NCBI GenBank assembly: GCA_965221125.1
Contig: CBDCRW010000004.1
Coordinates: 1,024,001-1,088,000 of the forward strand
From: Alphaproteobacteria bacterium
GTDB lineage: Bacteria; Pseudomonadota; Alphaproteobacteria; UBA828
Length of the DNA: 64,000 bases
Direction of reading: 5' to 3'
The translations under genes were made by a program, and so were the position numbers. This document shows, piece after piece, positions 1-37,036 of this stretch. The stretch's first letter is position 1. Each line of letters starts with the position of its first letter. Below the pieces are notes generated by a model. The model was not told the DNA's origin. It did not search any database and saw nothing but the letters and a program-made list of their open reading frames with translations.

Positions 1-2
1 CC

Positions 3-302
3 ACGCTGGACGCGGTCGCCTGCACGGCGATCAAGAACGAGCTCGCCCTCGTCGACGGCTTCGACTGCAAGACGTGGGACGTCACGGTGAAAGCCGGCCT
101 GACGGCGTCTGCGCTCTCAACCGGCCTGACGGCGTCTGCGCTCTCAAGCGGCGCCAACACCGCGGGCAACAGCGGCGACATGATCCTGGTCACGATCGAC
201 GGTTGGGAGCGGGCGCCCTGGGTGACGGAGGTGCGGAAGCTCGACGACCCGGAAGGCCGAGTCGCCACAGGCGTCGCCCGCCGCGAGCCGACGGACACGT
301 GA
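3..302 (+). CDS. 3' part of a probable TadE-like minor pilin (gene starts upstream of the window)
   Basis: Open frame from position 3 (TLDAVACTAIKNELALVDGFDCKTWDVTV...) to TGA 302, ending ATGVARREP like TadE/TadF C-termini; directly upstream of another tadE-like gene. Confidence 0.55.
   Translation, partial: TLDAVACTAIKNELALVDGFDCKTWDVTVKAGLTASALSTGLTASALSSGANTAGNSGDMILVTIDGWERAPWVTEVRKLDDPEGRVATGVARREPTDT
94..147 (+). repeat. Perfect 27-bp tandem duplication (in-frame, GLTASALS x2)
   Basis: ccggcctgacggcgtctgcgctctcaa at 94-120 and 121-147. Confidence 0.95.
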
Positions 303-463
303 GCGCTGTCATGATCAACGCGCGCGCACTCTTCGGGTCCATGCCGGCATTCCTCGGCCGGGTGTCGCGCGCCCTGGTCCTCCCGGCCGAGTCGCGTGCG
401 CGAGCCGGCGACGCGCGGCCAAGCGCTGCCCCGCCGGACTCGTTCCTGAGGCCGGCTCCTCTC

Positions 464-487
464 GGGGGGGGGGGGGGGGGGGGGGGG
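464..487 (+). repeat. Poly-G homopolymer (G24)
   Basis: 24 consecutive G, ending 1 nt before GTG 489. Confidence 0.95.
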
Positions 488-488
488 A

Positions 489-1163
489 GTGAAATTCCTC
501 CCTTCGGCGTTCGGGCGCAACCGGCACAGGGCATGGCGGCCACGGCCTGAGTCCCCTGCCACACTCATCGGGCGCCTAGTTCGCGAGCGGCGGGCGGCGG
601 CATCGATCGAGCTTGCCTTGGGCGTAGTGGCGATCCTGACCGTCGCATGGGTCGCCTTCGATGTCTATTCGCTGACCCGGGCCCACGCGGCGGGCGAGCG
701 CATCGCCGCCATCATGGCCAACTATGTCTCGCAGGAAGCGACGCCCGACGGCGGCGAGATCACGGCTCTCGGCAAGTTTCTGCGCGAGAGCGAACTCCGC
801 GTTCCGTCGTCGCTAGTATACCTGATTTCCGCGGTACATCTTGAGGACGATTCTGCCGAGCAACTCTGGGCCCCCTCCTCCTACGAGATCCGCCTCGGCG
901 ACGACGACGACGAAACGGCGTCTCTGGTTCAGACATGCAAGAGCCGGGGGAAGAGCGGCTGGCAGGCGCAGGCGCTCGGGGCCGATGCCACCCTCGCGCT
1001 CCAGCCCACCGATGTGGTGATCGTCGTCGAGATCTGCGCGAGCCTGAACCGCGAAGGCATGCTCAGCGAGTCGGTGGCCGGCAACCTTTACCGCGTCCAC
1101 GCCCTGCTTGCCCGCGGTACCGGGGGCAAGCCCGCAAGGCCGACCGAGCCTTCGACCAGCTAA
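489..1163 (+). CDS. TadE/TadF-like minor pilin (true start may be 299/311, across the poly-G tract)
   Basis: Class III signal-like motif ERRAAASIELALGVVAILTVAWVAF followed by a Cys-containing periplasmic domain ending VVIVVEIC...LYRVHALLAR. Confidence 0.75.
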   Translation: MKFLPSAFGRNRHRAWRPRPESPATLIGRLVRERRAAASIELALGVVAILTVAWVAFDVYSLTRAHAAGERIAAIMANYVSQEATPDGGEITALGKFLRESELRVPSSLVYLISAVHLEDDSAEQLWAPSSYEIRLGDDDDETASLVQTCKSRGKSGWQAQALGADATLALQPTDVVIVVEICASLNREGMLSESVAGNLYRVHALLARGTGGKPARPTEPSTS

Positions 1164-1737: not shown

Positions 1738-1774
1738 TCCTCCACGCTTAACGCGGAACGGCACGGACAGGAGC

Positions 1775-2689: not shown

Positions 2690-2824
2690 AGCACTGAGGC
2701 GCGCACCTTCCGGTGCGGGCGTTCCTGCGCCAATGGCCGTTGGTCACGGAAGACGGCGCAACGAGGCTTGTGACCGGCTGGTCGCGCCGAACAGCTTCAG
2801 CCACCGCGGAAGAGCGCGGCCGGC

Positions 2825-5800
2825 ATGACCCTCGACTCCTCCAGCCCGGCCAACGCCGTGACTGCGGCGACGGGGTCGCAGCCCGACGGCGATCGCCCGC
2901 GTGAGGTGCTGCACGAGCGCCCCGACCTGGGTGCGCTTGAAGCGCTGCTCGCGGACCCTGTAGCCGTTTCGTCGGAGGAGACGGCGCTTGCGGGCTTCAT
3001 TTCCAAGCCCTTGGGACAAGACAAAGCAGGTGCCGGGACCATCGGTCCGTTCGGGTCGCGAACCGATGATTCACTTGTCGATGCGCTGCCCAAGTTGCCC
3101 ACCCACGCGCCGGACGCTCCGACGGGGAGCGAGCGCACAGTAGACGACGGTCTCGCAGCGCATCCCTCAGTTCCCGCTGAGTCGCCGATCGCTCCGATCG
3201 AACACGATATCCAGCATGCGGACACGTTAGTCCAAGACGGAACTGCGGCCGATGAGACCGGAGAGCACGGCTCGAGTCGCGCAGGCGCAAATGCTGGCGC
3301 AATGCCGGGCGCAACCAGGGACATCTCCGGACACGAGATAAGCGCCGAAGACCCAGGTGCCGGCAACACCGGAGCTGCAGACACGAGCACGTTTTCGGGA
3401 CCCGAAGCGGTTCAGACGGAAACGAACGCCGGCCCATCCGTGAACGAGCACAGTGATCAAAGTGGCGGGGCTATAGCCAACGGCCCGGATGGGACTGCTG
3501 CAAGCAAGGCCGCCAACGCCGCAGCTTCCCTGGACGATGCCCTCCTTCGTGAAATCGCCGAGGCACCTTCGGTCTCCTCCGATTCGGCAGCTTCGGACAA
3601 AGTGGATGCTGTCTTTCTCGCCCTGGATTCACCGGCCCAAGAGTCCGGTCCGGCGACCGGAACCGATACTCTGGACGGCTTCGATATCGAGTCGTTCTTT
3701 GACAGTGGGTCGCGAGGTCCGGAAGCCACCGAGGCCGCCGACGCGCTGGAAGCCGACAAACCGTCTGCTGCATCTTCCGCCGGTGCCGCAGCCGTCAGTG
3801 GGGGAACCGCCAGCGGCAGTGACGCGAGCGATGCGAACTTGCAGGATCCGCCCGAATCCGAAGTACCGACCGCCTCACATGCGCACGAGCGGCTGGAACC
3901 GGCCGGGGAAGCTGCGGACGACCGATCCGGTCGGGGTGTTGAGGCCGCCGTTAACACACTCGGCGGACTCCTGGACGGCACCCTCGTTCGAGACATTGCC
4001 GAGTCGCCCGCAATCTCATCCGATTCGGCATCGTCAGAGCAGGTTGGCACGGCCGATCTCGCAGTCGATTCCCAGGTTCACGATTCGGATTCTGTGACCG
4101 AGTCTGCTTCACTGCGCAATCAAGGCCTCGGACGCGACTTCGACCACGAGGCGCAAGATTCTGAATCCCCCGCGACCACCGACGCTGTCGTGGAGAATGC
4201 GGCGCGACGCGAAGTGTCCAGTCCTGACGCCGTACAGTCCGCCGACGGAGCAGATTCGGCCGTAGGCGGCGCCGGCGCGAAAGACCCGATGGACGTCGGG
4301 GGCGCGGAGCCGGAGCCGAGCGGTCCTCCGTCTGCCGGAAGCGGCGTGGGCCGCGACGAGTCGGTTCTCGGCCGGATCGCCGGCGAGGTGGCGGCCATCG
4401 GCGGCGAGCCGGCCGAACCCGACTCCCGGGACACCGGCGTCGAGATGTCTTGCGATGTGCCGGCAAAGCCTGCCCCAAGCGTGTCGGATCGGAACGACCC
4501 AGTGGCATCCGACGTTGAGTCCCTTGAGGACTCTGGCCGGATCGACCAGTCCGAGACGAAGAGCGCACGGGAGGAAGCCGCTTCAGTCGCGCACGAACGG
4601 CACAAAGAGCATACCGAATCGGCCACGGAAGCGACGACGCCTGCCCGGCCGGCCGTTCCGGGGGACGAGTCGCCCTTCGGCCCGGCGGATCCCGGTGAAC
4701 CGGCAACTGCCGTTGCGACCGAAGACATCATTGCGAAGGACGTCGACACTGAGAGCGATATTGCGCCCGTCATTCACCTTCCCGATCTGAGCGGCTTGCC
4801 TTCCTCTGGAACCTGCGCGGACCAAAAGGAGTCGCTGCTCCGGCAGATTGCCGACGTGGTGGCCGCCTCTGCCGGCGCGGCCGGCGATGCGCCTCCGCCG
4901 GGTCTGGCCGGACGCGGTATCGCGAGCGTTGATGAGCAGAATGATGGAGCCCAAACGGATGCTCCGCGTTCGGAGGATTCGGCTTCGATCACACTTCCCA
5001 GACCCGAGGGCTCCGAACGGCCTTTCGTGCCTATCGTGCCGGCAACCCCCGAGGGTCCCACCGATTCGTTGCGGGAGGCCGCTCCCGAGTCGACCGGCTC
5101 CGCACTTGAGTCTCCCTCCGAACAAGCGGCTCCGGATAAACCGAAGATTGCTGAAACGACCGATGACGCCGGTGACTTCGGCGCCGCACCGGCAGAATCC
5201 GAGTCCGAATCGTTCTTCGACCCCACGAACTCCAAAGAGGCGGTGGCTGCCACCGTCGCCCGGTACGCCGTCGCAACGGACGCGGAGATCGAGGACGACA
5301 CCTCCTCCGTCATTCACCTTCCCGACCTGAGCGGCCCGGCACCCTTCGAAGCTGGCGCAGGCCACGCCGAGTCGGTTGTGCCGCTGGCTGACGATGCCAT
5401 ACCCGATTCTTCCAGCGAGCCCGCCGCGCCGCCTGAAGCGGCTACGCCCCTGTCCGAGGATGCGCAGGCACGTGGTTCCGACGGCTGGCCAGATGCCGAC
5501 GACGGGCCCGCGGCAGACGACATGTCTCCCGGACACGGAGGTGTCGGTTCCCTTCCCGAATCGGATGAGAGCGCAGTGCCCGCCGACCCGGCAGAGTTTC
5601 AATTCGGTGACGACCGCCAGGATTCCGAGTCCGATAAAGAGGACCGTGGCGAGGCTTCCGCTGACGCGACCGGTATCGTGTTCGACGACACCCTTCTCGT
5701 AGACCTCGCTGCCGTAGCGCCCATCTCGTCCGATGAGGACATTGCACCGGAACGCTCGTCAGCGGCCGCCGGCGGGAGTGCCGAAGCCGACGCCCACTTG

Positions 5801-7078
5801 GTGTCCGCTCCGGAACCCGCCTTCGACGTCTCCCTTCCTCACACCGACACCGTTTCCCTTGAGGCATCTGGCGACGAACCGGACCCCGAATACGCGCACG
5901 ATGCCCTGGAGGCGGAGTCTCCCGGCCCTGCTGCTGCCCTGGCCTTCGCGACCGATGCGGACACGGAGTTGGCGCTGCGCGATGGTTTGATCGGCTTCGG
6001 ATCCGCCTCCGCCGGGACCGGGGAGCCGCAGGTGTGGCAGGGCGGTCTCAAGGCCGCGATCGCGGCCCTGGCCGAGGGCCGCACGGCTCCCTTGGTTATC
6101 GTGGATATCGATGGCGTTCCCTACCCCGCTGGCGCCATCCACGAGCTGGCGGCGGTGTGCGAGGTGGGCACCGTGGTGGTGGCGGTGGGCTCCGATGTCT
6201 CCGCGCGCCCGGGACGCGAACTGCTGTTGTCGGGGGTGAGCGACTACCTGGCCAAGCCACTGACGGCGGAAGCGGTGCGCGGGGTGGCGTCCCGCGCTCT
6301 CGCGGATGCGGCCGAAAGGCGCCCCGGCGGCCGCGTCGCATGCTTCGTCGGCTGCGGGGGAAGCGGAGCGACGACACTGGCGGCCGCGACGGCACTCCAT
6401 GCGGCGTCGCGCGGCTGCTACGTCTCGGTACTGGACCTGAGTCGGACGGTGGCGGCGGCGGCGCTGGCCTTGGGGGTAGAGCCCGTGGCGGGTCTGGATC
6501 AGCTCCTGGAGACGACAGACAAGGTCGAGGTGGAGCCCGAGTCGCTTGAGGGCGTGTGCGGGCGCCGATCGGACCGGATCGAGGTCTACGCCCATCGCTG
6601 GAGCCCGGAGCATCCGGCGGCGGCGACGGCAGCGGCGGTGGATCGCCTGCTGGCCGCGCTTAGACAGCGCTCGCAGTTGGTGTTGGTCGACGGTCTCGAT
6701 GAAGCAGAGATGCGCTTCCTTCCTTCCGTCGAGATCGACACGCGGGTGTTCGTCGCGGAGCCGACGGCGGGGAAGACGCCTCATCTGATCCGCATGATGG
6801 ACCTGCTGGACGGTGACCAGCCCACGGTGTTCGTGCAGAACTACACGCGCTCCTTCCGCCGCGACGCCGGCGCGCGCGCATTGCGGGAGGCGGGAACGGG
6901 GATCGAGCCAGACCTCGCGGTCCAGTTCGATCCGGCGATTCCCGAGACGGCCGACCGGGGCTGGCCCCAGGGAAGGCTGCCGCGCTCGTTGCGCAAGCCG
7001 GTGTCGGCGCTGACGGACCTTCTTCTGGACGAGTCGTCCGCTGCCGGCGCTGCGGCGGCCTTCGCAAGGGCAGCGTGA
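2825..7078 (+). CDS. cpaE: Giant CpaE/TadZ-like pilus localisation protein: ~1,030-aa acidic low-complexity N-terminus, receiver-like domain, MinD/ParA-like domain
   Basis: C-terminal ~380 aa has LVIVDIDG, GVSDYLAKPL and RVACFVGCGGSGATTLA...VSVLDL; stop overlaps the tadA start; paralogous to 32022-33176. Confidence 0.8.
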   Translation: MTLDSSSPANAVTAATGSQPDGDRPREVLHERPDLGALEALLADPVAVSSEETALAGFISKPLGQDKAGAGTIGPFGSRTDDSLVDALPKLPTHAPDAPTGSERTVDDGLAAHPSVPAESPIAPIEHDIQHADTLVQDGTAADETGEHGSSRAGANAGAMPGATRDISGHEISAEDPGAGNTGAADTSTFSGPEAVQTETNAGPSVNEHSDQSGGAIANGPDGTAASKAANAAASLDDALLREIAEAPSVSSDSAASDKVDAVFLALDSPAQESGPATGTDTLDGFDIESFFDSGSRGPEATEAADALEADKPSAASSAGAAAVSGGTASGSDASDANLQDPPESEVPTASHAHERLEPAGEAADDRSGRGVEAAVNTLGGLLDGTLVRDIAESPAISSDSASSEQVGTADLAVDSQVHDSDSVTESASLRNQGLGRDFDHEAQDSESPATTDAVVENAARREVSSPDAVQSADGADSAVGGAGAKDPMDVGGAEPEPSGPPSAGSGVGRDESVLGRIAGEVAAIGGEPAEPDSRDTGVEMSCDVPAKPAPSVSDRNDPVASDVESLEDSGRIDQSETKSAREEAASVAHERHKEHTESATEATTPARPAVPGDESPFGPADPGEPATAVATEDIIAKDVDTESDIAPVIHLPDLSGLPSSGTCADQKESLLRQIADVVAASAGAAGDAPPPGLAGRGIASVDEQNDGAQTDAPRSEDSASITLPRPEGSERPFVPIVPATPEGPTDSLREAAPESTGSALESPSEQAAPDKPKIAETTDDAGDFGAAPAESESESFFDPTNSKEAVAATVARYAVATDAEIEDDTSSVIHLPDLSGPAPFEAGAGHAESVVPLADDAIPDSSSEPAAPPEAATPLSEDAQARGSDGWPDADDGPAADDMSPGHGGVGSLPESDESAVPADPAEFQFGDDRQDSESDKEDRGEASADATGIVFDDTLLVDLAAVAPISSDEDIAPERSSAAAGGSAEADAHLVSAPEPAFDVSLPHTDTVSLEASGDEPDPEYAHDALEAESPGPAAALAFATDADTELALRDGLIGFGSASAGTGEPQVWQGGLKAAIAALAEGRTAPLVIVDIDGVPYPAGAIHELAAVCEVGTVVVAVGSDVSARPGRELLLSGVSDYLAKPLTAEAVRGVASRALADAAERRPGGRVACFVGCGGSGATTLAAATALHAASRGCYVSVLDLSRTVAAAALALGVEPVAGLDQLLETTDKVEVEPESLEGVCGRRSDRIEVYAHRWSPEHPAAATAAAVDRLLAALRQRSQLVLVDGLDEAEMRFLPSVEIDTRVFVAEPTAGKTPHLIRMMDLLDGDQPTVFVQNYTRSFRRDAGARALREAGTGIEPDLAVQFDPAIPETADRGWPQGRLPRSLRKPVSALTDLLLDESSAAGAAAAFARAA

Positions 7079-11417: not shown

Positions 11418-11434
11418 GCCGGGGAGGAGTTGAG

Positions 11435-12430: not shown

Positions 12431-12431
12431 G

Positions 12432-15142: not shown

Positions 15143-15233
15143 GACACGGGCCCCGGGAAATGCCAAGGACATCGATCCGCCGTTGCACCATGACCGGCGC
15201 CGCGGCACATCGGATCGAGAACGCGGGCGGAGC

Positions 15234-18521: not shown

Positions 18522-18645
18522 TGCCGGCACTCGTGCACCTGATCCAGCCTTGTGCCGGCGGACGGATCCGCCGGGCGATCGCCGCGTTCGGCGCGAAGCC
18601 TGCCGAATCCGGTTCGCAGTCGCATGGAAATAGTTGAGGAGACAC

Positions 18646-19119
18646 ATGGCCGACGTGGTCGTCCATATCGCAGAGGCTGCGGCGTGTGCTTTGTTCGCCG
18701 CGAGCGTCGCTACCGATGTGCGCCGCCGCGAGGTTCCGAACGCCGTTCCTCTTCTGCTGCTCGGCCTCTTTGCGGTCTACGCGGCAGCGGGCGCGGTGAG
18801 GCCTCTTGGGGACCTTTGGCAGCACATTGCGGTCGGCGCGATCATTCTCGCCGCCGGGTTCGGTCTCTTTCTGACGGGGCGCTTCGGAGCCGGAGATGCC
18901 AAGCTGTTCGCCGTGGCCGGTGTCTGGATCGGTCCTGCGCTCTCCCACCTGACCCTCTTCCTGTTCGGCATGGCGGCGTTCGCGCTGGCGCTCGTCGTGG
19001 CCGCCCTTCTGCCCTTCGAGAGGATGCGGCGCATGCGCAAGGAGCTGCCGTTCGCGGTCGCGATCGCCCCGCCGGCCGTGATCGTCCTGGCTCTGCGGGC
19101 GCTCTCGGACGGGATATGA
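18646..19119 (+). CDS. cpaA: Prepilin peptidase TadV/CpaA (peptidase A24)
   Basis: Catalytic Asp motifs ATDVRRREVPN and FGAGDAKL, C-terminal LPFAVAI; RBS gaggag before ATG 18646. Confidence 0.93.
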   Translation: MADVVVHIAEAAACALFAASVATDVRRREVPNAVPLLLLGLFAVYAAAGAVRPLGDLWQHIAVGAIILAAGFGLFLTGRFGAGDAKLFAVAGVWIGPALSHLTLFLFGMAAFALALVVAALLPFERMRRMRKELPFAVAIAPPAVIVLALRALSDGI

Positions 19120-19137
19120 GCGCGAGGAATCGCTGAC

Positions 19138-23127: not shown

Positions 23128-23161
23128 ACTCCCCGCCAGGAAATCGTCCCGGAGCCCGATC

Positions 23162-29100: not shown

Positions 29101-31288
29101 CACGGCGTCGCTCCCGGAAGGCGTGCCGGTGGAGAACAGCCTGCGCGTGGTCCCGGACATCGAACACCTGCGCGCGGCCCTGGCCGGCGAACCCGGACTG
29201 GATCGCGTTCAGGTTCAGCGGCTCGCGCGCGGCGTGGCGCTTTCCGGCGACGTCGACTCGCATGCGGCGGAAGGCCGCGCACTCCGGCTGGCGGCAGCCT
29301 CACTTCCGGAAGGCGTGCCGGTGGAGAACAACCTGCACGTGGGACTGGACCTCGCGCCTCTGCGCTCGCTGGTGGCCGGCGAGCGCGGTCTGAAGGACGT
29401 TCGTGTGCAGCGGACAGGCCGCGGTGTTGCGCTCATCGGCGAGGTGGGTTCGGCCGAGGCGTCCGATCAGGCCTCCCGCCTCGCGGCCGCGCTTCTCCCG
29501 GAAGACATGCCTGTCGAGAACAACCTGCGCGTGGTGTGGGACGTGGAGCCGCTGCGCGCGCTTCTGGCCGGATCGCCCGATCTGGAACGCGTGCAGGTTC
29601 AGCGCCTTGCGCGTGGCGTCGTGCTCAGCGGGGATGTCGACTCGCATGCGACGGCCGACCTGGCGCTTCGCCTGGCTGCGGCATCCGTGCCGGAAGGCGT
29701 TCTGGTGGAGAACAACCTGAACGTGCGACTGGACCTGGCGCCACTGCGGGTGCTCATTGCAGGTGTACCGGACTTGCGCAACGTCCGGGTGAAACGGATC
29801 GGACGGGGCGTGGCGCTCTCGGGCGAGGTGGGCTCGGCGGAAGCGTCAGATAGGGCACTTCGGCTCGCCGTGGCCTCGCTGCCCGAGGGTATTGCGGTCG
29901 AGAACGGCCTGCGCATAGCGCCGGATGTCGAACCGCTGCGGGCGCTCCTGGCCGGGGAACCCGGTCTTGAGCGGGTGCACGTGCAGAAACTCGCGCGTGG
30001 CGTCGCGCTGGCCGGCGATGTCGCTTCGCCGAAAGCCGCAGACCGGGCGCTGCGTCTTGCCGCCGCTTCCCTGCCCGAAGGCATGCTGGTGGAAGACAAC
30101 CTGAACGTCGGGTTGAATCTTGCGCCTCTCGAAGCGCTCATGGTTGCGGAGGAGGGCTTCGAGAGCATCCGCCTCAACCGGATCGACCGAGGCGTGGCGC
30201 TGACCGGCGAGGTGGGGTCGCAGACGGAAGCGGAACGTGCTGCCCGTCTTGCGGCTGCCACGCTCCCTGAGGACGCTCTGGTCGAGAACAACCTGCGCGT
30301 GGTGCTGGATTCCGGACCTCTTCGTGCGGCCCTTGCGGGTGATCCGGAGTTCGACCGCGTCCACGTGCGCGATCTTGGGCATGGCGTATCGCTGAGCGGC
30401 GAGGTCAGCTCGGCTGCGGCCGCCGATCGGGCGCACCGACTTGCCGCCGTTTCGCTGCCTGCGGACACGCTGGTGGAGAACAACCTGCGCATCGCCGGGC
30501 CCCTGCAGGTGAACCTGGAGGTGCAGATCGCGGAGGTGCAGCGCTCCATCGCCGAGGAATTCGGGTTCAACTGGGAGCTCTTCGGACGTTCTGCCGAGGG
30601 GGATCTGGGAGGCAGCTTCCGGATCGGACGGCAGAACAGGACCGAGCAAGCCATGGTGGACGGATTGCCGTCGCCGTCCCTCATTCTATCGAGAACGTGG
30701 GAAGAGATCGGCATTACCGGCATGGTCGATGCACTTGCGAAAGCGGGCCTTGCTAACGTGCTGGCCCGGCCCAACGTCACCGCCAACTCGGGCGAGACCG
30801 CGTCCTTCTTCTCGGGTGGTGAGTTTCCGCTGCCGTCCGGCTTCAAGGACGGGGTGATCGTCTTCGAGTACAAGAAGTACGGTGTCGTTCTGGACTTCGT
30901 ACCGACGATCGTTGACGACGGCAGGGTCGAGCTTACGGTTCGTCCCGAGGTTTCCGAGCCCTCGCAGGATAACTCGGTGCAGGTTGCCGGCGGCGTCAAC
31001 GTCCCCGTGATCAACGTGCGCCGTGCCGAGACTACCGTCGAGATGGGCGACGGCGAGTCGATCGTGATCGCAGGGCTCTTCAGCAGCACCTCGAACGAAG
31101 TGCAGTCGGGGGTGCCGGTGCTCAAGGATCTGCCGCTGCTCGGTGCGATGTTCGGACACACCTCGACCCGGGCGGACGAGCTGGAGCTGATCGTCACCGT
31201 GACCGCCCGCCTGGTGCAGGCCGGGCCCGCGCCGGGCGACGCGATCACGGCCGGATCCGGACAAGCCAACAACAGTTACTACTACTGA
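23162..31288 (+). CDS. cpaC: Giant RcpA/CpaC secretin: TadD-like TPR lipoprotein N-terminus, Pro/Ala linker, pilus-formation N domain, 26 BON-like repeats, secretin domain
   Basis: Lipobox VLFSLSA-C; TPRs; IASPEIADVQLLTPRVLFVMGRNLGRTTV; 26 repeats ending VENNL; QVNLEVQIAEV, LARPNVTANSGETASFFSGGEFP, RRAETTVEMGDGESIVIAGL, VPVLKDLPLLGAMF. Start uncertain (23120 or 23162). Confidence 0.9.
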   Translation: MNTAHTDRYPVPAKPGQPRARFSVSPFEAIRRAAAMAAVLFSLSACWGLSGESRSPGGEQLLQSNLSVASAALAAGQPAVAHKLYLALAERFDDAPEPVLGLGYIALQTERPGEAGDHFRRAAKLSDDAPGLRAEALLGAARASLAQGDSSAARHHLAAARDLAEDSSTIAWIENGLAVAAVFEEDYRTAEAHYASALRQPSAHPRIAANFIRMLIASGRIDVAERTYGAYATSYWDEGDRHALQNLIGEARRLSPPPNRFDPRLLLRLTEMKALPDPADAPAYPADGGLRTGPEGPVLTIGGRLFPATPATMAARPAATPAAPVLSEPPLEETADPVPTSKRSAPEYQPSVGERGSPRAAIPALAAALPREVPASSVTRSGSSSWSDVLVLRIDPEGTSREGILEVDAPVEGPPSATSTDERPPGNAETDAVPVEDVLPIDGALRSGLVLVVASSHAQVSPGSAVPDFDAATSTPGAPPQVHEPGAVQAAGIPSATAGVEQQAHRLEADPVQSANALLLTVSPHDGPPLRDNASLRAPSSSASLSREAGATSATLKSEAPEGAPPEGASHVAAAQASGLQLATIEGAGGTHRSEPGPTLVVNVAILNDYSNYDPFSAAPAAHRPFLLASASSPYIDPLWESVWMPKGSGAGFHTFAAVESESHDDWLPQVAETAPPEPARSDEWTVLLGTGHRLTLGVDAAAVAIASPEIADVQLLTPRVLFVMGRNLGRTTVSVLGEDGSVFERDVSVVLDIEPLRALLAGEPGLQGVQVESLTRGVALAGDVDSQEAADRALGLATVSLPEGTLVENNLDVGLDLEPLRALLAGEPGFADVAVKRVGRGVALTGEVASAESADRARRLALTAVPEGLPVENNLRVIIDIEPLRTVLAAKPGLDRVQVQRLARGVALAGEVDTPEAADRALRLAAASLPEGVLVENNLNLILDLLPLKALLAAETGLAHVHVRQVAWGVALAGEVASARSADLAHRLAVASLPESVPVENNLRVVDLEPLRAVLAGEAGLRGVRVESLTHEVALVGEVASPALVDLAVRLAADFLPESVPVENNLRVVDLSPLRVLLAGEPGLGGVEVRRLGRGVALAGEVASAETSERAHSLALVTLPEDLPVENNLRIVFDTGPLLEILAGEPGLERVRVQRLARGVALSGYVDSPVAAERARGLASASLPEGLAVQDNLTVGLGLEPLRELPAGEPGLDDLAPLRVFITEEPGLEGVVVRRVGRGVALTGEVASVEDAERARRLVVAALPETVPVENNLRVVPDIEPLTTVFASEPGLEGVQVKRLPRGVALAGHVDSQEGADRALGLATASLPENTLIENNLDIGLDLGPLRALLAGESGFADVEVQRVGRGIALTGEVASPEVADRAHRLAAASLPETVPVENSLRVEFDIVPLRVLLAGEAGLERVQVQRLARGVALSGYVESPAAAERALGLASASLPEGLLVEDNLTAGLGLEPLRALLAGEPGLDDLSPLRAFIAGEPGLEGVEVQRVGRGVALTGEVASAEDAERARRLAVAALPEGVPVENNLRVVFDIVPLRVLLAGEAGLDRVHVQRLARGVALAGYVGSPAAEDRALRLAAASLPEGLLIENNLDVGLDLDPLRVLLIGEPGLDSVAARRVGRGVALTGEVASADAADRAHRLAVASLPENLLVENNLRVQFDIEPLRAVLAAEPGLEGIQVRQLARGVALAGEVASPEAADRASRLAAASLPEGLIVENNLEVGLDLEPLRALMSGESGLEGVEVRRIGRGVALTGEVASADAADRAHRLAVASLPESLLVENNLRVQFDIEPLRTVLAAEPGLEQVRVQRLARGVALAGEVASPEAADRAHRLAVASLPGGLLVENNMSVVLDLVPLQALMAGESGLKGVEVQRVGQGVALTGEVASAEASDRAYRLIAASLPDSLPVENNLRVVFDIGPLRAVLAGEPELDRIQVQELGRGVVLTGEVASAEASDRAHRIATASLPEGVPVENSLRVVPDIEHLRAALAGEPGLDRVQVQRLARGVALSGDVDSHAAEGRALRLAAASLPEGVPVENNLHVGLDLAPLRSLVAGERGLKDVRVQRTGRGVALIGEVGSAEASDQASRLAAALLPEDMPVENNLRVVWDVEPLRALLAGSPDLERVQVQRLARGVVLSGDVDSHATADLALRLAAASVPEGVLVENNLNVRLDLAPLRVLIAGVPDLRNVRVKRIGRGVALSGEVGSAEASDRALRLAVASLPEGIAVENGLRIAPDVEPLRALLAGEPGLERVHVQKLARGVALAGDVASPKAADRALRLAAASLPEGMLVEDNLNVGLNLAPLEALMVAEEGFESIRLNRIDRGVALTGEVGSQTEAERAARLAAATLPEDALVENNLRVVLDSGPLRAALAGDPEFDRVHVRDLGHGVSLSGEVSSAAAADRAHRLAAVSLPADTLVENNLRIAGPLQVNLEVQIAEVQRSIAEEFGFNWELFGRSAEGDLGGSFRIGRQNRTEQAMVDGLPSPSLILSRTWEEIGITGMVDALAKAGLANVLARPNVTANSGETASFFSGGEFPLPSGFKDGVIVFEYKKYGVVLDFVPTIVDDGRVELTVRPEVSEPSQDNSVQVAGGVNVPVINVRRAETTVEMGDGESIVIAGLFSSTSNEVQSGVPVLKDLPLLGAMFGHTSTRADELELIVTVTARLVQAGPAPGDAITAGSGQANNSYYY
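25415..30495 (+). repeat. 26 diverged ~192-bp repeats (64-aa BON-like domain) plus two 17-aa partial units
   Basis: Consensus DxEPLRALLAGEPGLxxVxVxRxxRGVALxGEVASxEAADRAxRLAxASLPExxxVENNLxV, counted by eye in the translation. Confidence 0.93.
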
Positions 31289-31328
31289 GGACGGTGCCGC
31301 CGTGCAGTTTCTCCTCCTGGAGTACGCA

Positions 31329-31988
31329 ATGAGGAACACGCGCCCGATAGATGTCCCCGCTTCGCGGGAGAGAGATGCAGCCGCCCCCGCGGTGGCCTCG
31401 ACTCCTGCCGCAAACCATCCTGCCGGGACGCGTCTCCGCAATGCGGCCGTGCCAGATCCGAATGCCGGCTCAATTCCGGCGGGCTTCCTCTCCCTCCGCG
31501 GCGATATCCCGGATGGAGAGCGCCCGCCTGACCGACGCAACGCAGGAAACATTGTCGTGCCCGACCTCCCGACCCGCAGCCGTCCAGCCGCCATCACCGC
31601 CGCCCTGTGTGTCGTCGTCGTTCTCGGCGGCTGCCAGGAGCGGCTGGCGCAACGCGATACCTACTTCGCTCCCCTGCGCGGCTTGAGCGCCTCTCTGCAT
31701 GCGGAGACGGAGCACGTGCTGGATTATCATCAGGCCATGCAGGCCGCGCTGCATGGATGCAGCAAGAGCCAGCGCGCGACTGCAACACCGAGCGTCATGG
31801 GGCCGGCGAACGTGGTGCCGGAGGGAGCGTTGGATCCCGACGCGCAGGCGCGGCTCTGCGCATCCTCCGGGATCACGCATGCTACGCACGGGGCGCCGTT
31901 GAACGGCTACCGGCGTTGGGTGGGAGACCAGGTCCGCGAGTTGCCCGCGCCGTCCGAGACGGCCTCCTCGATCGGAGGCGGCTCTTGA
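31329..31988 (+). CDS. Putative lipoprotein in the cpaD/rcpB position
   Basis: Hydrophobic stretch and lipobox ALCVVVVLGG-C; lies between secretin and cpaE; RBS ggag. Confidence 0.55.
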   Translation: MRNTRPIDVPASRERDAAAPAVASTPAANHPAGTRLRNAAVPDPNAGSIPAGFLSLRGDIPDGERPPDRRNAGNIVVPDLPTRSRPAAITAALCVVVVLGGCQERLAQRDTYFAPLRGLSASLHAETEHVLDYHQAMQAALHGCSKSQRATATPSVMGPANVVPEGALDPDAQARLCASSGITHATHGAPLNGYRRWVGDQVRELPAPSETASSIGGGS

Positions 31989-32021
31989 GCGACCGAGGCC
32001 CATCCCGGCTCCCCTCCGGCC

Positions 32022-33176
32022 GTGAGCGCGATCATGGCACTTTCGCCTGACAGCCTCTACGCGCGAGCGTTCGCTTCGGATGGCGAGACGCTGCGGGCGC
32101 TTCGTACCGGGCTCGAGGGCCGCAAGGCGAGGATCCAGCGCGGACGTCTCGCAGCGGCGCTACGCACGCTCGCGAGCGAACCGGCCTCCAGGGTGCTGTT
32201 CGTCGACCTCGACGGCATCGCGGAACCTGGCTCAGCCGCTCGGGAGCTGACGGCGGTGTGCGCCTTCGAGACCGCCGTGATCGCCATCGGCTCCATCGAC
32301 ACGGCTCAGTACACCCGGGAATTGTTCCAGCAGGGCATCGCCGACTATCTGGTCAAACCCGTATCCGCCTCCCTTGTGCGCGAAGCCTGCGCGGCGGTGA
32401 CGGATGATGGTACCGAGCGACCCTACGCAGGACGGGTGGTCGCGTTCGCGGGCAGCGCGGGCAGCGGGACCTCCACCCTTGTAGCCGCGCTCGCCCGTAC
32501 CATCGGCGCCGAAGGACGGACGGTGTCGGTGGTCGATCTCGATCCGATATCCGGACGGCTTCCCGCGCTGTTGGGCTCCGAGCCTGCCGAGGGTCTTCCG
32601 GCGCTACTTGAAGCGTTGAGCGCTCAGGCCGGGAACGACACCGATGTGGGCGCGGCAGCCGACCAGATCGACGGCGTATGCATGCCCGTCGATGCCCAGG
32701 TGTCACTGTTCGCCTACGCTCCGGATTTGGCCCTTCCGGCAGCACCTTCGTCGGTCTCGGTACTCAGGTTGCTCGGGCACCTCGCCAACCGGACGCACCT
32801 GGTGCTGGTGAGAGGGTTCCCGGATCCCGTCACGCAGCTCGACATCATGCAGCAGACCGACGCCCGCGTGCTGCTCTACGAACCGACGCTGTCCAGCCTG
32901 AGTGCTGCGGTTCGATGCCTGGCCCTTCTTGGTACGAGCCACCCCGCGACCTTGGTGCAAAGCCTGCCGAGGATGCCGCGAAGCGCGTTGTCGCCGGCGC
33001 ATATCCGCTATGCGTTGGGCGACCGCAAACCCGACATCGTGGTGCCCTTCGATTCCGCAATTCACGCGGAAGCCACCGAGGGCAGGTCGAAGCAGCCCGG
33101 ACGGGCGTGGCACAACGCCGTGCGGCAAGTGCTGGATCGTATCCTCGAGAGCGCCGCCGTGCCGCAGGGAGATTGA
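32022..33176 (+). CDS. cpaE: CpaE/TadZ-like protein, normal-sized copy
   Basis: Receiver-like VLFVDLDG, QGIADYLVKPV; RVVAFAGSAGSGTSTLV...VSVVDLD. Confidence 0.85.
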   Translation: MSAIMALSPDSLYARAFASDGETLRALRTGLEGRKARIQRGRLAAALRTLASEPASRVLFVDLDGIAEPGSAARELTAVCAFETAVIAIGSIDTAQYTRELFQQGIADYLVKPVSASLVREACAAVTDDGTERPYAGRVVAFAGSAGSGTSTLVAALARTIGAEGRTVSVVDLDPISGRLPALLGSEPAEGLPALLEALSAQAGNDTDVGAAADQIDGVCMPVDAQVSLFAYAPDLALPAAPSSVSVLRLLGHLANRTHLVLVRGFPDPVTQLDIMQQTDARVLLYEPTLSSLSAAVRCLALLGTSHPATLVQSLPRMPRSALSPAHIRYALGDRKPDIVVPFDSAIHAEATEGRSKQPGRAWHNAVRQVLDRILESAAVPQGD

Positions 33177-33250: not shown

Positions 33251-33925
33251 ATGGCGGCATGTCTCCTTTTCCTGACCGCCGTTCTGTCGGGATCCGCCCA
33301 TGCGGATGTGTCCGGGCTGGCTCGGGTGATCGACGGCGACACCATCGAGGTGAGTGGTAGCCGCATCCGGCTACACGGGATCGATGCGCCGGAAAGCGAA
33401 CAGCTCTGTTGCGTCGGCGGCACGGCCCGGAAGTGCGGCAGGCAGGCAACGCGTGCACTGAGAGATCGGATCGGCGGCGGCCTCGTGGACTGCGAGGAGA
33501 GGGATCGGGACCGCTACGGCCGCCTCGTGGCGCTCTGCCGCGTCGGCGGCGGTGACCTGGGAGCCTGGCTGGTCATCCAAGGGTGGGCGCTGGCCTATCG
33601 CCAGTATTCGGACGCCTACGTGAGCGAAGAGGCATCGGCAAGAGAGTCCCGGAGGGGTCTCTGGCACGGCGAGTTCGTCGCGCCCTGGGACTGGCGCGCG
33701 GGGGAGCGCCTGCTCTCGACATGTCAGGTCAGGCCCCGAAAGGAAGATCACACTCCCGGCAACTGCCTCATCAAGGGGAATATCGCCCGCGACGGAGAGC
33801 GCATCTACCACCTTCCGGGCGGGCAATACTACGAGCGGACCCGGATCGATTCAGCAAGGGGCGAACGCTGGTTCTGCACCGAGGCCGAGGCTGAGGCGGC
33901 AGGGTGGAGGAGATCGCGCCGGTGA
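33251..33925 (+). CDS. Secreted thermonuclease (SNase-like, ExoI-type) with C-terminal Cys/His domain
   Basis: VIDGDTI, IRLHGIDAPE, DRYGRLVA, GWALAY, RGLW, then CLIKGNI...IYHLPG...ERWFCTEAEA. Confidence 0.9.
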   Translation: MAACLLFLTAVLSGSAHADVSGLARVIDGDTIEVSGSRIRLHGIDAPESEQLCCVGGTARKCGRQATRALRDRIGGGLVDCEERDRDRYGRLVALCRVGGGDLGAWLVIQGWALAYRQYSDAYVSEEASARESRRGLWHGEFVAPWDWRAGERLLSTCQVRPRKEDHTPGNCLIKGNIARDGERIYHLPGGQYYERTRIDSARGERWFCTEAEAEAAGWRRSRR

Positions 33926-34171
33926 ACGACCGTCCTGCCGCGCAGATATTGTCCGCCCGGTCCGGCTGGAGCGAGGAGAAGCGGTCCGCCTCGTCCATGG
34001 CGTATCTCCGGCTCCCAGCGAAGACATGCACACCAGGCGTGCCCCTGGCCGGCGGCCGGCGCTTCCTGTGCGCCAGTATCGCACCGGTGGCGAAGTCCGG
34101 CACTCGACGCTCCTACAATCCCGGATCGGCAAGGACGTTTCTCTCTGCTTCTCCGGCACCGTGAAGAACAG

Positions 34172-35018
34172 AATGAACAACGCATACGAGACCTGCCTCT
34201 CCATGAATGCCTCACCGGGCACCATCGCCGGAGCGCTCCGGGAGCGAGAAATTTGCCGACCTACAGGCGAGGTACTCGCACATACCCGGGCCTCGCCGCC
34301 AAGTCCGCCCGCGCCGGCTAACCCCTTCCGGCTTGTCGGGCGTGCCGCGCTGCCGTGGCACGAAATGAGAGAGGGACGTGAACGGCCGAGCAAGAAGGAG
34401 TTCGAGGCTGCACTTCCTTGCAGCTGTGCACGGATTCTTGTCCCCAACGCCGGCGGTGCCGGACGGAAGCCGGGCAGATGCGGGCGCCGAAGACCATGCA
34501 CATCGGGCTCGAAACCGCCCGAGGTCGCAGATAGGCCCCCGGCGACCGGACGACCCGGTCGCCGGCTACTCGACTGCAACGGCAAACGCTGGCGAGGCCA
34601 GGGCCACCAGTGCCGTTGCAGCCGGATTATCTCGAACAACAAACGCGCGCTGAGGAACCTTCGATCCATGAGCAGACGCAGCCTTGAGCGCAATCCGGCC
34701 GCGCTGACGGCCGCCCGACACCTCAGGGAGTTCGGCTTTACGGGCTGGCATCTGAGGCAGCGCAAGCAAGACCCCCGCCCCCCCGATGCCGTGGTGGACG
34801 GCGCGGACCGCGTGGAGCGGCAGTTGGTCCAGGCCGACCACCACGCCGCCGAACAGTTCCCGCACCGGGACGATTCCGCCGTGTTCCTGCTGATGGGCCG
34901 GCCTCGCCCCGAAGCCGGAGACGGACTGATAGCGCTCACTCGCTACTGGCTCATCGAGGAGGTCAACGTCATGCACCAGGACAGGGAAGAGGCGATTTAT
35001 GCCGTGTTCTGCACATGA
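34172..35018 (+). CDS. Hypothetical ORF or degraded gene remnant
   Basis: Only the 3' half looks protein-like (YWLIEEVNVMHQDREEAIYAVFCT). Confidence 0.25.
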
Positions 35019-35085
35019 GGCGACAGACAACCATTCTTCTGGAAGACCGTGGAACGCCCGAGCGCGCCGCCTGTCTATTACCGGA

Positions 35086-35781
35086 ATGGGAGTGAGTGTC
35101 GTGAGAGTGTCGGGAAGAGTGCTGTTGCCAGTCGTGGTTCTACTGTTTACTGCCGGCGCCGTACTCGCTCAGGACAATCAAGACAGCGTGCCGCGCCTCT
35201 ATCTCTCGGCGAGCGGTGCTCTGGTCATGCCGGCTGACGTTCACGCCGACTTCCACGACGCTTCGGGGAGCCCGAATGGAGGAATGGATGGGGCATTCGA
35301 CAGGGGCCCTGGTCTCGTTCTCGTCATGGGCTACGGCCAGAAGTGGGGGGTCCGGGGCGAGTTGGAGATCGGGTACCGGACCTTCGCGATCGACAGGATA
35401 TCGAACTTTCGGCTGGGTGGCGTTGCCGATCCCGGCCCCTATCGAGCGATCGGCGACGTGACGTCATACTCGGTCATGGGGAATGTCGTGTCGTCGCTGG
35501 ATTTGGGTCCTCTCAACTTGTACGTCGGCGGCGGCATCGGCATGGCCCGCGTCGACGCCGGTATGCGCTCCATTGCACGTGTGTCGTTCGACGAAGCCGA
35601 TGGCCGGGACAGCGTATTTGCCTGGCAGCTGTTCACTGGCCTCCAGTACCACCTGTCCCAGGACTTCTCCGCGTCGCTGGGCTATCGCTATTTCGCGACC
35701 GAAGACGCGAGATTCGGCAGCACCTCCGCACCCATAGAGGCTCACAACGTCGAAGTGGGCATTACCCACTGGCTGGACTGA
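35086..35781 (+). CDS. Small outer-membrane beta-barrel protein (OmpA-TM/opacity-porin-like)
   Basis: Signal peptide; RGELEIGYR, YVGGGIGMA, FAWQLFTGLQY, LGYRYF, HNVEVGI. Confidence 0.85.
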   Translation: MGVSVVRVSGRVLLPVVVLLFTAGAVLAQDNQDSVPRLYLSASGALVMPADVHADFHDASGSPNGGMDGAFDRGPGLVLVMGYGQKWGVRGELEIGYRTFAIDRISNFRLGGVADPGPYRAIGDVTSYSVMGNVVSSLDLGPLNLYVGGGIGMARVDAGMRSIARVSFDEADGRDSVFAWQLFTGLQYHLSQDFSASLGYRYFATEDARFGSTSAPIEAHNVEVGITHWLD

Positions 35782-35824
35782 GGATCCCGGAAACCTTTAT
35801 TTCCGGTCTGCGAGGGGCAACATA

Positions 35825-37036
35825 TTGCAGCAGCAAACGAAAGCAACGGTTCGCGCGACGAGGCTGTGCGGGATCGTCGCTGCGGCCACCGTCGTCTGGC
35901 TCTGCGCACTTTCGCTCGCAGTCGAGGCTGCTGCGCCGTCGGTGGAGGATGTGCGCGTGGATCGGTACGGCGACGGGACGCGGCTCGTCGTGGAACTGAC
36001 CGGAGCGGTTGACTTTCAGGTCTTCGCTCTGGCCGGGCCGGAGCGGCTGGTGATCGATCTGTCGCCGGTGCGCTGGGTACTGCCGGATCGCACTCTCACC
36101 ATCGGCCGTGACGGCGTGGCTCAGATCCGGTTCGGCCAATTCCGGCCCGATACCTCGCGCATCGTGATCGACCTGGACCTGCCGCTCATCCTGGGCAGTG
36201 CGCAGTGGCTTGAAGCCGACGCAGTCTCCAGGAACCCCTACCGCCTGATCCTCGATCTCGCTCCCGTACCCGCGTCGGCGTTTCTCGCCACCGTCCGCGT
36301 TCAGCCATCGGATCCTGCGCCGCTGCCAAGGTTGAAGCCGCTGCCGCCATCCCTCGTCCGCCTCATCGCCCTCGACCCCGGCCATGGAGGGCGCGATCCC
36401 GGGGCGGTCTCGTCGGGTGGTGTACAGGAGAAAGTTATCGTCCTGACCTTTGCGCGTGAGCTTCGCGACGTTCTCCAGGAAACCGGTCGCTATCGCGTGG
36501 CAATGACCCGGGACAGCGACCGCAAGGTCGGGCTCTGGCAGCGCGTGGCATTCGCCCGCAATTCCGGCGCGGACGTCCTCCTCTCAATTCACGTAGACCG
36601 CGTGCATGACCGCCGGGTGCGCGGAGCCTCGGTCTACACCCTGTCCGAGGAGGCCTCCGACGCCGAGACAGCCGAGCTCGCCAGGTTCGAGAACAAAGCT
36701 GACATCGCCGCCGGTATCGAGGCGCCGGAGCAGCTTGATCCCGATGTCGCTGCGGTTCTTGCTTCGATGGAGCAGCAGGGAACCATGAACTGTTCCGTTG
36801 TACTTGCAGGACTGCTGGTCCCCGCGCTCGGCGATGTGGCTCCCCTCGTCAACCGCTCCCACCGAATGGCGGAGTTCCGCGTGCTCAAGGCACCGGATGT
36901 CCCGTCGGTCCTGATCGAGCTCGGCTTCTTGTCCAACGAGCAGGATGCCGAACGCCTGAAGAGCGTCAATCACAGGAGGGCGCTGGCCGTAGCGATCCTC
37001 AAGGCTGTCGACGAGTATTTCCTGGAACCTTGCTGA
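35825..37036 (+). CDS. amiC: N-acetylmuramoyl-L-alanine amidase (AMIN + Amidase_3)
   Basis: AMIN motifs (TRLVVEL, PERLVIDL, IRFGQF..SRIVIDL); IALDPGHGGRDPGA, EK, LSIH, VLKAPDVPSVLIELGFLSN. Confidence 0.92.
   Translation: MQQQTKATVRATRLCGIVAAATVVWLCALSLAVEAAAPSVEDVRVDRYGDGTRLVVELTGAVDFQVFALAGPERLVIDLSPVRWVLPDRTLTIGRDGVAQIRFGQFRPDTSRIVIDLDLPLILGSAQWLEADAVSRNPYRLILDLAPVPASAFLATVRVQPSDPAPLPRLKPLPPSLVRLIALDPGHGGRDPGAVSSGGVQEKVIVLTFARELRDVLQETGRYRVAMTRDSDRKVGLWQRVAFARNSGADVLLSIHVDRVHDRRVRGASVYTLSEEASDAETAELARFENKADIAAGIEAPEQLDPDVAAVLASMEQQGTMNCSVVLAGLLVPALGDVAPLVNRSHRMAEFRVLKAPDVPSVLIELGFLSNEQDAERLKSVNHRRALAVAILKAVDEYFLEPC

Follow-up and report, generated by a model that had tools for sequence, protein, structure and literature searches.

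The window analyzed here, a 64,000-nt stretch of DNA (G000:C4:1024001-1088000, GC ~68%), carries at positions ~1-37036 an island of genes for a Tad/Flp (type IVc) pilus, whose secretin is 2,708 amino acids (aa) long and contains 26 tandem BON domains. Judging from its genes, we think it probable that the island is a functional-looking Tad/Flp pilus machine of an uncultured, sponge-associated alphaproteobacterial genus, and that the amplified BON array acts as a length-tolerant sleeve or tether, not as a ruler. The parts list of a Tad system is complete (TadA, TadB/TadC, TadZ, a pil_N secretin, CpaB, and TadV), and each of these parts places the island in the Tad family. The folds of the parts are all known; what is new is the architecture, which makes this an extreme, undescribed variant of a known adhesion machine.

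The source genome (G000; 4.58 Mb, 92% complete) encodes one TadA and one secretin in total, both of them inside the island. The island begins ~315 nt to the left of window base 1, nearly all of its genes lie on the + strand, and they are tightly spaced, with small gaps or GTGA start/stop overlaps. Gene identities were taken from Pfam, NCBIfam, and PDB searches, and the frames of open reading frames (ORFs) were judged by GC content at third codon positions (GC3). An earlier description of the same DNA, referred to below as the original prediction, had noted that the BON array of the secretin, the CpaB-TadB linker, and the TadZ extension are all long, while TadA, TadC, TadV, and Flp are of normal size, and that CpaB and TadZ each occur as one long and one normal copy. 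Domain matches agree with both statements, with four corrections: the secretin starts at 23162, the CpaB-TadB fusion starts at 8487, the TadV frame is 18634-19119, and the repeat count is 26.

A Giant Secretin With 26 BON Repeats

The secretin gene occupies 23162-31288 (+) within an ORF of 22895-31288, the ATG at 23162 being its likely start (Secretin, 1.9e-40; T2SS-T3SS_pil_N, 7e-13). Its product opens with a signal peptide that carries a lipobox and continues with a TPR module (lipobox and TPR together at ~23300-24150), a Pro/Ala/Ser-rich linker of ~350 aa, a pil_N domain (~25211-25411), the repeat array (25406-30493, +), the secretin domain (~30494-31288), and a C-terminal YYY tail that is conserved in relatives. 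Against the Pfam BON model the array scores 3.8e-110 (360 bits) with 13 stretches counted; motif spacing and a family hidden Markov model (HMM) give 26 in-register repeats of 64 aa, two of which carry a 16-aa insert. The repeats alternate between two types, with an identity of 0.66 at a lag of two vs. 0.57 at a lag of one, and the DNA has a matching two-repeat super-period (384 nt, 76% matches), so the array can be read as 13 dual-BON units. Because the copies differ from one another by 24-33% in DNA, the array is not an assembly artifact; giant secretin frames were also seen in six other genomes.

Four consecutive repeats were modeled with AlphaFold2 (AF2) on the basis of 134 aligned, in-register four-repeat windows drawn from this locus and seven related loci. 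The model has a predicted local distance difference test (pLDDT) score of 89.9, and each repeat in it has the order alpha-beta-beta-alpha-beta. Foldseek matches to the PDB were ring-building motifs of type III secretion systems (T3SS), with YscD the best at 2e-8, followed by CdsD and PrgH, and the dual-BON proteins DolP, OsmY, and BonA. Both the family model and the predicted fold assign the repeats to the BON (PF04972)/ring-building-motif fold. The T3SS and dual-BON proteins share the fold predicted here but carry two or three domains, compared to 26 in this secretin and 9-47 in its relatives.

Distribution and Turnover of the Repeats

Relatives of the secretin were searched in a collection of 5.8 billion proteins. 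The 36 clusters of the family, some of which are fragments, are at least 61% identical in the pore region, measure 1,505-3,852 aa, and hold 9-47 BON domains (median 26.5); their N-terminal (~740-790 aa) and C-terminal (266-299 aa) parts are constant. A four-repeat profile searched against 1.84 billion representatives matched 262 proteins at E ≤ 1e-3. All 14 matches at E ≤ 1e-30 belong to the giant-secretin family. Among those that rank next are Tad secretins of 544-1,294 aa, some with TPR, pil_N, one BON, and the secretin domain, others with pil_N, a few BON domains, and the secretin domain. In a survey of the class (301 genomes; one unpublished genome, G268, adds one ordinary entry), a CpaC-type secretin was found in 144 genomes, and the listed frames other than that of G000 are 339-1,026 aa long. 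Some shorter relatives combine TPR, pil_N, one or a few BON domains, and the secretin domain in 577-1,082 aa; the family-specific HMM undercounts divergent BON domains. These architectures show that the fused TPR module and the pore-adjacent BON are older traits, and that the extreme amplification is lineage-specific.

Our collection includes genomes of 21 species of the genus. Scored by the gene for a conserved 602-aa protein, the island is present in seven of them, G000 included. Full islands are found on G020:C61 (36 BON, 3,411-aa secretin frame), G015:C95 (28-29 BON, 2,876-aa frame), and G005:C3 (~41-43 BON); TadB is fused to CpaB in the first two and unfused in the third. The G005 genome has, in addition, a second, partial copy of the right module (C2, 660000-680000) with a 22-repeat secretin, the lipoprotein, and the short TadZ. 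The remaining three genomes have the right half only, at a contig start (G008, 27 BON), an island with 12+5+2 BON and an unfused TadB (G011), or a remnant with 4 BON (G019). Synteny extends over the whole island in G015, G020, and G005 and over part of it in G008, G011, and G019, and the accessory genes (those for the TPR-SPOR protein, amidase, nuclease, Ig adhesin, peroxidase with kinase, and 602-aa protein) keep their places beside the tad genes wherever the contigs permit a view. The original prediction had called the island a distinct Tad subtype. As a distinct, conserved variant whose accessory genes are syntenic among same-genus relatives, this stands; the logic given for it, a coordinated stretching across an enlarged periplasm, is not supported, as discussed below.

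Comparison of individual repeats indicates where the array changes. Apart from repeat 22 in G005, the eight pore-proximal repeats of G000 correspond one-to-one with the final eight in G008, G020, and G005, in contrast to the distal and middle repeats, for which the best matches are scrambled between genomes. Between G015 and G000, one pair has been inserted after repeat 1. A collinear proximal part and a shuffled distal part together imply that copy number shifts by duplication and deletion in the pore-distal part of the array.

Selection and Frame Integrity

Pairwise ratios of nonsynonymous to synonymous substitution (dN/dS) were calculated by the Nei-Gojobori method. Within the secretin, the BON repeats (0.16-0.29) are under purifying selection, with ratios close to those of the TPR module (0.25-0.39) and the pore domain (0.08-0.18); pil_N gave 0.09-0.19 and the linker 0.49-0.66. 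For the long TadZ, values were 0.56-0.62 in the arm and 0.12-0.19 in the domain. The fused CpaB gave 0.73-0.78 against G020 and 0.38 against G015, the fusion linker 0.47-0.63, the TadB part 0.20-0.24, and the free CpaB 0.19-0.22.

Nearly identical sequence is present in sponge and marine metagenome runs from four studies. We checked the frames over 2800-11500 with contigs, rather than reads, from one source-like run and from three further runs, which belong to two other studies and comprise one marine and two sponge metagenomes. The listed indels and skips in the TadZ arm and fusion linker (-12, -6, -3, +9, a net -156, a paired +1/-1, and -150/-135 in a short tandem repeat of the fusion) are without exception either multiples of three or offset again a few bases away. 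Substitutions are many, and there are 644 further differences beyond those listed.

The TPR Module as a Probable Built-in Pilotin

The secretin lipobox is conserved in eight of eight loci. In an AF2 model the TPR module behind it has ~220 folded residues in 11 helices, with pLDDT >85 over residues ~10-200, and PilF is the sole named bacterial pilus protein among its top matches. A precedent is known from Pseudomonas aeruginosa, in which the last four residues of the secretin RcpA bind the TPR groove of the lipoprotein TadD, on which RcpA depends, as described in PMC10499894. By analogy, the fused TPR lipoprotein module is probably a built-in pilotin that grips the conserved YYY tail. The two cases are alike in pairing a TPR lipoprotein with a Tad secretin that has a conserved C-terminal tail. 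They differ in that the TPR lipoprotein here is part of the same polypeptide as the secretin; its similarity to PilF and TadD is nonspecific, and its binding of the YYY tail is a proposal from that analogy.

Duplicated CpaB and TadZ

The right half of the island follows the alphaproteobacterial order cpaA-cpaB-(two inserted genes)-cpaC-lipoprotein-cpaE, and the left half the order Flp-TadZ-TadA-TadB-TadC; the two genes duplicated where these halves meet are therefore CpaB and TadZ. The long CpaB is a CpaB-TadB fusion of 976 aa (8487-11417, +; RcpC, 1.4e-19; T2SSF, 5e-15), whose true start is the GTG at 8487 that overlaps the TadA stop. It consists of a transmembrane helix, an (AAPVR)n stretch, SAF/RcpC domains, a linker of ~330 aa, and a TadB opening with a transmembrane helix of its own. 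The two helices make for a consistent topology (in-out, periplasm, out-in). The AAPVR stretch is encoded by a 15-nt tandem repeat (8612-8793, +; ~11-12 copies, 99% matches). Contigs from the source-like run and from other runs skip 150 or 135 nt of it, and its copy number probably varies or is collapsed in assemblies.

Taking the CpaB hairpin end and a marker in the first TadB helix as its limits, the linker is 328 aa in G000, 338 and 342 aa in the two copies from G020, and 343 aa in G015. Against the family BON profile, the G020 linker gives clear matches (E 1.6e-11 and 3.6e-10) and the G000 linker weak ones (1e-5 and 1e-4), from which we conclude that the linker consists of decayed BON repeats. 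Its length does not follow the BON count of the secretin, which the original prediction had offered as a check on its own proposal: the arrays of G000, G020, and G015 have 26, 36, and 28 repeats. Twelve database clusters, that of the window included (entered as 876 residues searched), are RcpC + T2SSF fusions; they measure 924-1,183 aa and share at least 49% identity. The linkers of the others are 285-451 aa, and their entries come without genomic context.

The free CpaB/RcpC (311 aa; 19138-20073, +) matches RcpC at 7e-26, SAF, and TIGR03177 at 2e-46, and RcpC and TIGR03177 exceed their cut-offs in the free and the fused CpaB alike. The fused CpaB part of G015 (G015:C95, 9301-10194) is 96% identical to the free CpaB of G000 and ~57% identical to the fused one, which suggests gene conversion between the CpaB copies; the G015 fusion also duplicates the C-terminal hairpin of CpaB. 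The fused CpaB is an optional addition, since its evolution is relaxed and the fusion is absent in G005 and G011.

The long TadZ/CpaE (1,417 aa; 2825-7078, +) has an acidic, disordered extension (~2825-5950) ahead of a receiver-like and a MinD-like domain (~5950-7078). The last ~370 aa are CpaE/TadZ-like and match the CpaE receiver-domain structure 4n0p in a PDB search (E 6e-8). The arm of ~1,040 aa is of low complexity. Its net charge per 100 aa lies between -13 and -15 in each of the five orthologues, and it contains motifs that are both conserved and repeated, one of the type LL-R-x-IA-x-x-P-x-VSSD (4-5 times) and one of the type VIHLPDLSG (twice). At its GC content of 66%, we estimate that about one stop per 40 codons would arise by chance, so an open frame of ~1,040 codons lies far beyond chance. 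The second TadZ/CpaE (384 aa; 32022-33176, +) matches a CpaE-homologue model (3e-13) and 4n0p (8e-5), with a dN/dS of 0.20. Neither TadZ copy has a Pfam family above cut-off.

Proposed Assembly of the Machine

For the geometry and role of the array, and for the roles of the TPR module, the fusion, and the TadZ arm, we infer the following scheme. TadV would mature Flp, and TadA, the TadB/TadC platform, and TadZ would polymerize the pilus. The free CpaB would form an inner-membrane-anchored alignment ring, and the pilus would leave through the CpaC/RcpA-type secretin. In characterized systems RcpC/CpaB assembles into a dodecameric ring that is anchored in the inner membrane and docks onto the periplasmic domain of the secretin, according to PMC12307814 and bioRxiv 10.1101/2025.11.05.686773. 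The latter also reports that in Caulobacter CpaE dimers ring CpaF and CpaB contacts CpaC via a bridging protein, and RcpA is described as forming 13-14-mers in PMC10499894.

In shorter relatives a single BON-fold domain sits between pil_N and the pore; this domain has been amplified to 26 copies here and to 9-47 in relatives. Each of 13-14 pore protomers (a number borrowed from RcpA) would add its folded BON domains as a long chain, in which they are probably paired into dual-BON units. With pil_N meeting the CpaB ring, these chains may fill the space between ring and pore as a periplasmic sleeve or tether. The TPR lipoprotein end would loop back to the outer membrane via the long flexible linker, where it may hold the YYY tail. 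Both ends of the chain could then sit at or near the outer membrane, so that the length of the array need not equal the width of the envelope and 9-47 copies could be tolerated. Unequal recombination in the pore-distal part would lengthen and shorten the array. A fast-evolving additional CpaB, joined in one subclade to TadB by a tether of decayed BON repeats, would covalently link one or a few positions of the ring to the platform. The acidic arm of the long TadZ, with its repeated short motifs, is most likely a multivalent cytoplasmic scaffold.

Several observations weigh against this scheme. In the four-repeat model the predicted template modeling score (pTM) is 0.58 and the orientation between adjacent repeats is uncertain, so that sleeve, tether, and brush geometries are indistinguishable. 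The TPR module model matches generic TPR proteins as well as PilF, TadD is not among its top matches, and a PDB sequence search links it to PilF only at E 0.02-0.08. The dN/dS of the fused CpaB against G020 would fit a dispensable copy, and ratios for low-complexity regions are rough owing to alignment. Finally, the island is patchy in the genus (7/21) and decayed in some genomes: the G005 secretin is split over two frames, the secretin and 602-aa gene of G011 are interrupted by inserted DNA, the assembly of G008 is 100% complete and has no TadA, and the G019 remnant has none either.

Alternative Readings

A less probable reading, which nonetheless has several observations in its favor, is that the array anchors a load-bearing adhesive pilus, as a DolP/OsmY-like string of dual-BON units spread under the outer membrane or through peptidoglycan, together with the TPR-SPOR protein and the AMIN-amidase. 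The two-repeat super-period, the fold matches to DolP, OsmY, and BonA, and the conserved neighboring genes for wall-binding and wall-cutting proteins all point this way, and a tolerance of 9-47 copies suits a brush better than a tube. The best fold matches, however, are the ring-forming YscD and CdsD. A tube would result if the BON domains of the ~13-14 protomers stacked into closed rings, making the longest secretin vestibule known (~30-140 nm), which we consider doubtful. If true, it would imply a strongly non-canonical envelope, or a Tad pilus threaded through an extension of the outer membrane, with the species-specific number of repeats tuning its reach.

It is unlikely that the secretin array, CpaB-TadB linker, and TadZ extension were lengthened jointly as a ruler that spans an unusually wide symbiont periplasm, which was the idea behind the original prediction. 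Three elongated parts do occur within one island. In addition, ordering five clusters by TadZ frame length or by BON number gives nearly the same ranking (921/19, 1434/26, 1523/36, 1578/28, and 1682/~42; rank correlation ~0.9). This is a weak hint, because there are five clusters from related genomes, one array is broken, another is frameshifted, and TadZ is cytoplasmic. The other giant secretins that we found (1,801-4,681 aa) come, where a source is named, from Phycisphaerae, a group with an enlarged periplasm. Against a ruler, repeat number varies five-fold (9-47) in proteins that share at least 61% identity over the pore, linkers stay within 328-343 aa while repeats go from 26 to 36, and G005 and G011 combine giant arrays with an ordinary, unfused TadB. 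The TadZ extension, being cytoplasmic, cannot span the periplasm. At ~3 nm per domain, an estimate based on known sizes of BON and ring-building-motif domains, 26-47 domains would need 80-140 nm. The single TolC-family gene of G000 has a normal 471-aa frame with two OEP repeats, a weak argument for an envelope of ordinary width. Models for TolA (TIGR02794) and TonB_C found no match in G000, although the TolA model also misses a Caulobacter control and is thus uninformative, and a literature search gave nothing usable on envelope width. Spacer lengths varying independently, along with accessory genes not conserved with the tad genes, had been named as the outcome that would count against coordinated stretching; the lengths do vary independently, and the accessory genes are conserved nonetheless.

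We give a similarly low probability to neutral repeat expansion in a decaying accessory island, in which the elongations would be functionless, tolerated products of slippage or recombination. The island is patchy, several copies are broken, and the AAPVR microsatellite differs between runs; dN/dS points to relaxed constraint in the fused CpaB (0.73-0.78), in the linkers (0.47-0.66), and in the TadZ arm (0.56-0.62). The BON repeats, by contrast, evolve under purifying selection (0.16-0.29) and fold confidently, the 1,040-codon frame of the TadZ arm is open with conserved motifs, and the listed indels in other strains keep the frame. Least likely is a Kil-like device for contact-dependent attack or DNA-related functions, in which pilus, adhesin, and secreted nuclease would jointly target neighboring cells or host DNA: several genomes have the nuclease and the Ig-repeat lipoprotein in synteny with the tad genes, and Tad-like Kil pili mediate contact killing in Myxococcus as described in PMC12075869, but TadA is 50-57% identical to ordinary CpaF, no toxin-immunity pair was seen (no search was aimed at Kil-specific components), and in a sponge holobiont adhesion is the simpler reading.

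Gene Order and Remaining Core Tad Genes

From left to right, the island encodes two TadE-like pseudopilins, a Flp-like pilin, a 155-aa protein, the 1,417-aa TadZ, TadA/CpaF, the CpaB-TadB fusion, and TadC; then a di-heme cytochrome c peroxidase, a DAHL histidine kinase, an Ig-repeat lipoprotein, TadV, the free CpaB, and the 602-aa protein; and then a TPR-SPOR protein, the secretin, a small lipoprotein, the second TadZ, an SNase-type nuclease, an outer-membrane protein (OMP) barrel, and an AMIN-amidase.

Neither TadE-like pseudopilin gave a Pfam or NCBIfam match. The first, of which the 3' part lies in the window (1-302, +), is a 205-aa ORF (-315..302) without a family match that was assigned from its hydrophobic, TadE-type N-terminus. 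The second (224 aa; 489-1163, +) has a TadE-like N-terminal segment and is 46-61% identical to its counterparts in G005, G015, and G011. The Flp-like pilin (76 aa; 1507-1737, +) has a hydrophobic core and an EY motif and is 57-66% conserved at the same position in relatives; its match to Pfam Flp_Fap (E 0.86) falls short of the cut-off, so that the call is based only on size, position, and motif. Between Flp and TadZ lies a conserved protein of 155 aa (2222-2689, +), without a match in Pfam or NCBIfam, that is 79-85% identical in G020, G015, and G005 (dN/dS 0.21).

TadA/CpaF (471 aa; 7075-8490, +; T2SSE, 1.6e-66) joins the TadZ stop in a GTGA overlap. It matches the TadA-family NCBIfam model at 9e-97 with 324 bits, under the 373-bit cut-off of that equivalog, and its closest annotated CpaF proteins are ordinary ones from Alpha- and Betaproteobacteria in a plasmid collection. 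The platform is of the Tad kind, with two single-domain T2SSF proteins, TadB inside the fusion (5e-15) and TadC (331 aa; 11435-12430, +; 4e-16). The prepilin peptidase TadV (161 aa; 18634-19119, +) matches Peptidase_A24 at 1.8e-14 (54.5 bits; cut-off 26.5) and has the GC3 of a coding frame. The ORF at 18552-19136 was rejected as the TadV frame; it is an arginine-rich, wrong-frame artifact with poor GC3, as is another rejected ORF at 34026-35018.

Accessory Genes

The original prediction had also listed a co-directional block encoding a TPR-SPOR protein, an amidase, a nuclease, an adhesin, and a heme-sensor pair, all of which were recovered, the pair being the peroxidase and the kinase. The peroxidase, of the di-heme cytochrome c peroxidase/MauG family (12405-13385, +; CCP_MauG, 5.5e-59), is syntenic in G020, G015, G005, and G011 and is followed by the DAHL-domain histidine kinase (13388-15142, +; DAHL, 2e-30; HATPase_c, 1e-18). 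The Ig-repeat lipoprotein (15183-18521, +), a putative adhesin, has a lipobox and four He_PIG stretches (6e-26); its C-terminal part of ~370 aa has no family match. The conserved, island-specific 602-aa protein (20190-21998, +; dN/dS 0.25) gave no Pfam, NCBIfam, or PDB match, and just two related loci were found in the genome-contig collection.

Next to it, the TPR-SPOR protein (22042-23127, +; TPR_19, 1e-14; SPOR, 2.7e-10) is by its domain peptidoglycan-binding. The small lipoprotein at the cpaD position (31302-31988, +) carries a lipobox and has no family match; relatives align only from residue ~87 on, and ~31557 is a candidate start. The secreted staphylococcal-type nuclease (33251-33925, +; start approximate) has a signal peptide, an SNase domain (5.6e-14), and a C-terminal sunset domain (4e-14). 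A gap of ~1 kb (33925-35000) follows, with poor GC3 in all frames, no convincing ORF, and no Rfam match; G005 has a gap of similar size. Beyond it lie the outer-membrane beta-barrel protein (34999-35781, +; OMP_b-brl, 4.5e-9) and the AMIN-domain N-acetylmuramoyl-L-alanine amidase (35825-37036, +; Amidase_3, 3.6e-44; AMIN, 2.7e-14), which adjoins the island in G015, G005, and G008 as well. Rfam and tRNA scans of the window found nothing.

Surroundings of the Island

To the right of the island, a segment with GC ~0.60 (37700-43900) encodes an AMP-binding enzyme (40167-41693), an MBOAT acyltransferase (42830-43912), and three ORFs without family matches. It leads to a conjugative/integrative element (44000-64000) with a NACHT-like NTPase (44239-47688, -), a TrwC-type relaxase/helicase (47840-50317, -), a large serine recombinase (51347-53716, +), a TrwB-type coupling protein (54218-56422, -), a DUF5372 protein, and a single-stranded DNA-binding protein (SSB; 61625-62986, -). 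The low-GC segment and the conjugative element fit the patchy distribution of the island. On the same contig, 13-16 kb to the left of the window, lie a transposase/integrase-core ORF and a TniB/IstB-like ATPase ORF, and a similar element seems to interrupt the G011 secretin.

The genus also has a second, simpler type of Tad cluster (G015:C76, G007:C52, and G001:C405), with Flp, a TadZ with an acidic arm of ~300 aa, TadA, TadB, TadC, TadV, CpaB, TadE, and an Ig adhesin; no secretin was found within the 12-20 kb covered around it.

Relation to Known Systems

With the Cpa system of Caulobacter and the Tad systems of Pseudomonas and Aggregatibacter, the island shares the core of TadV/CpaA, CpaB/RcpC, pil_N secretin, TadZ/CpaE, TadA/CpaF, TadB, and TadC, to which it adds a candidate Flp pilin and putative TadE-like pseudopilins. 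It differs in its 2,708-aa secretin with 26 BON domains and a fused TPR lipoprotein (compared to 339-1,026 aa among the frames listed in the class sample), in a second CpaB fused to TadB, in a second TadZ with an acidic arm of ~1,040 aa, and in the genes for a peroxidase, kinase, adhesin, nuclease, and wall enzymes that the operon contains or adjoins. Myxococcus Kil, as presented in PMC12075869, is likewise a Tad-derived machine with accessory functions, whereas TadA here is closest, in a plasmid collection, to ordinary CpaF.

The giant GspD-type secretins mentioned above are likewise lengthened many-fold by repeated periplasmic domains. They differ in being of the type II secretion system (T2SS) type, in repeating Secretin_N (PF03958) and other domains rather than BON, in their pore identity (27-32%), and in coming from another phylum, and they are an independent case of secretin gigantism. 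Another multi-BON envelope architecture is seen in unrelated proteins of 1,100-1,250 aa that join many BON domains to a C-terminal OmpA domain. A search of full-text literature found no description of multi-BON Tad secretins, pilotin-fused Tad secretins, or CpaB-TadB fusions.

Implications

Secretins and their periplasmic ring domains belong to the textbook inventory of pili and secretion systems, and the envelope is taken to dictate how large they are. A BON number that drifts between 9 and 47 among close relatives, with each copy under purifying selection, challenges that view and provides a natural length series for probing the role of secretin N-domains as conduit, tether, or anchor. The island holds three further design variants, namely a secretin whose pilotin may be built in, a platform protein joined covalently to an alignment-ring protein, and a TadZ with a multivalent disordered arm, for a family of machines whose in situ architecture has only recently been solved. 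For the abundant, uncultured sponge symbionts that carry them, these Tad pili are a candidate device for attachment to the host or to neighboring cells.

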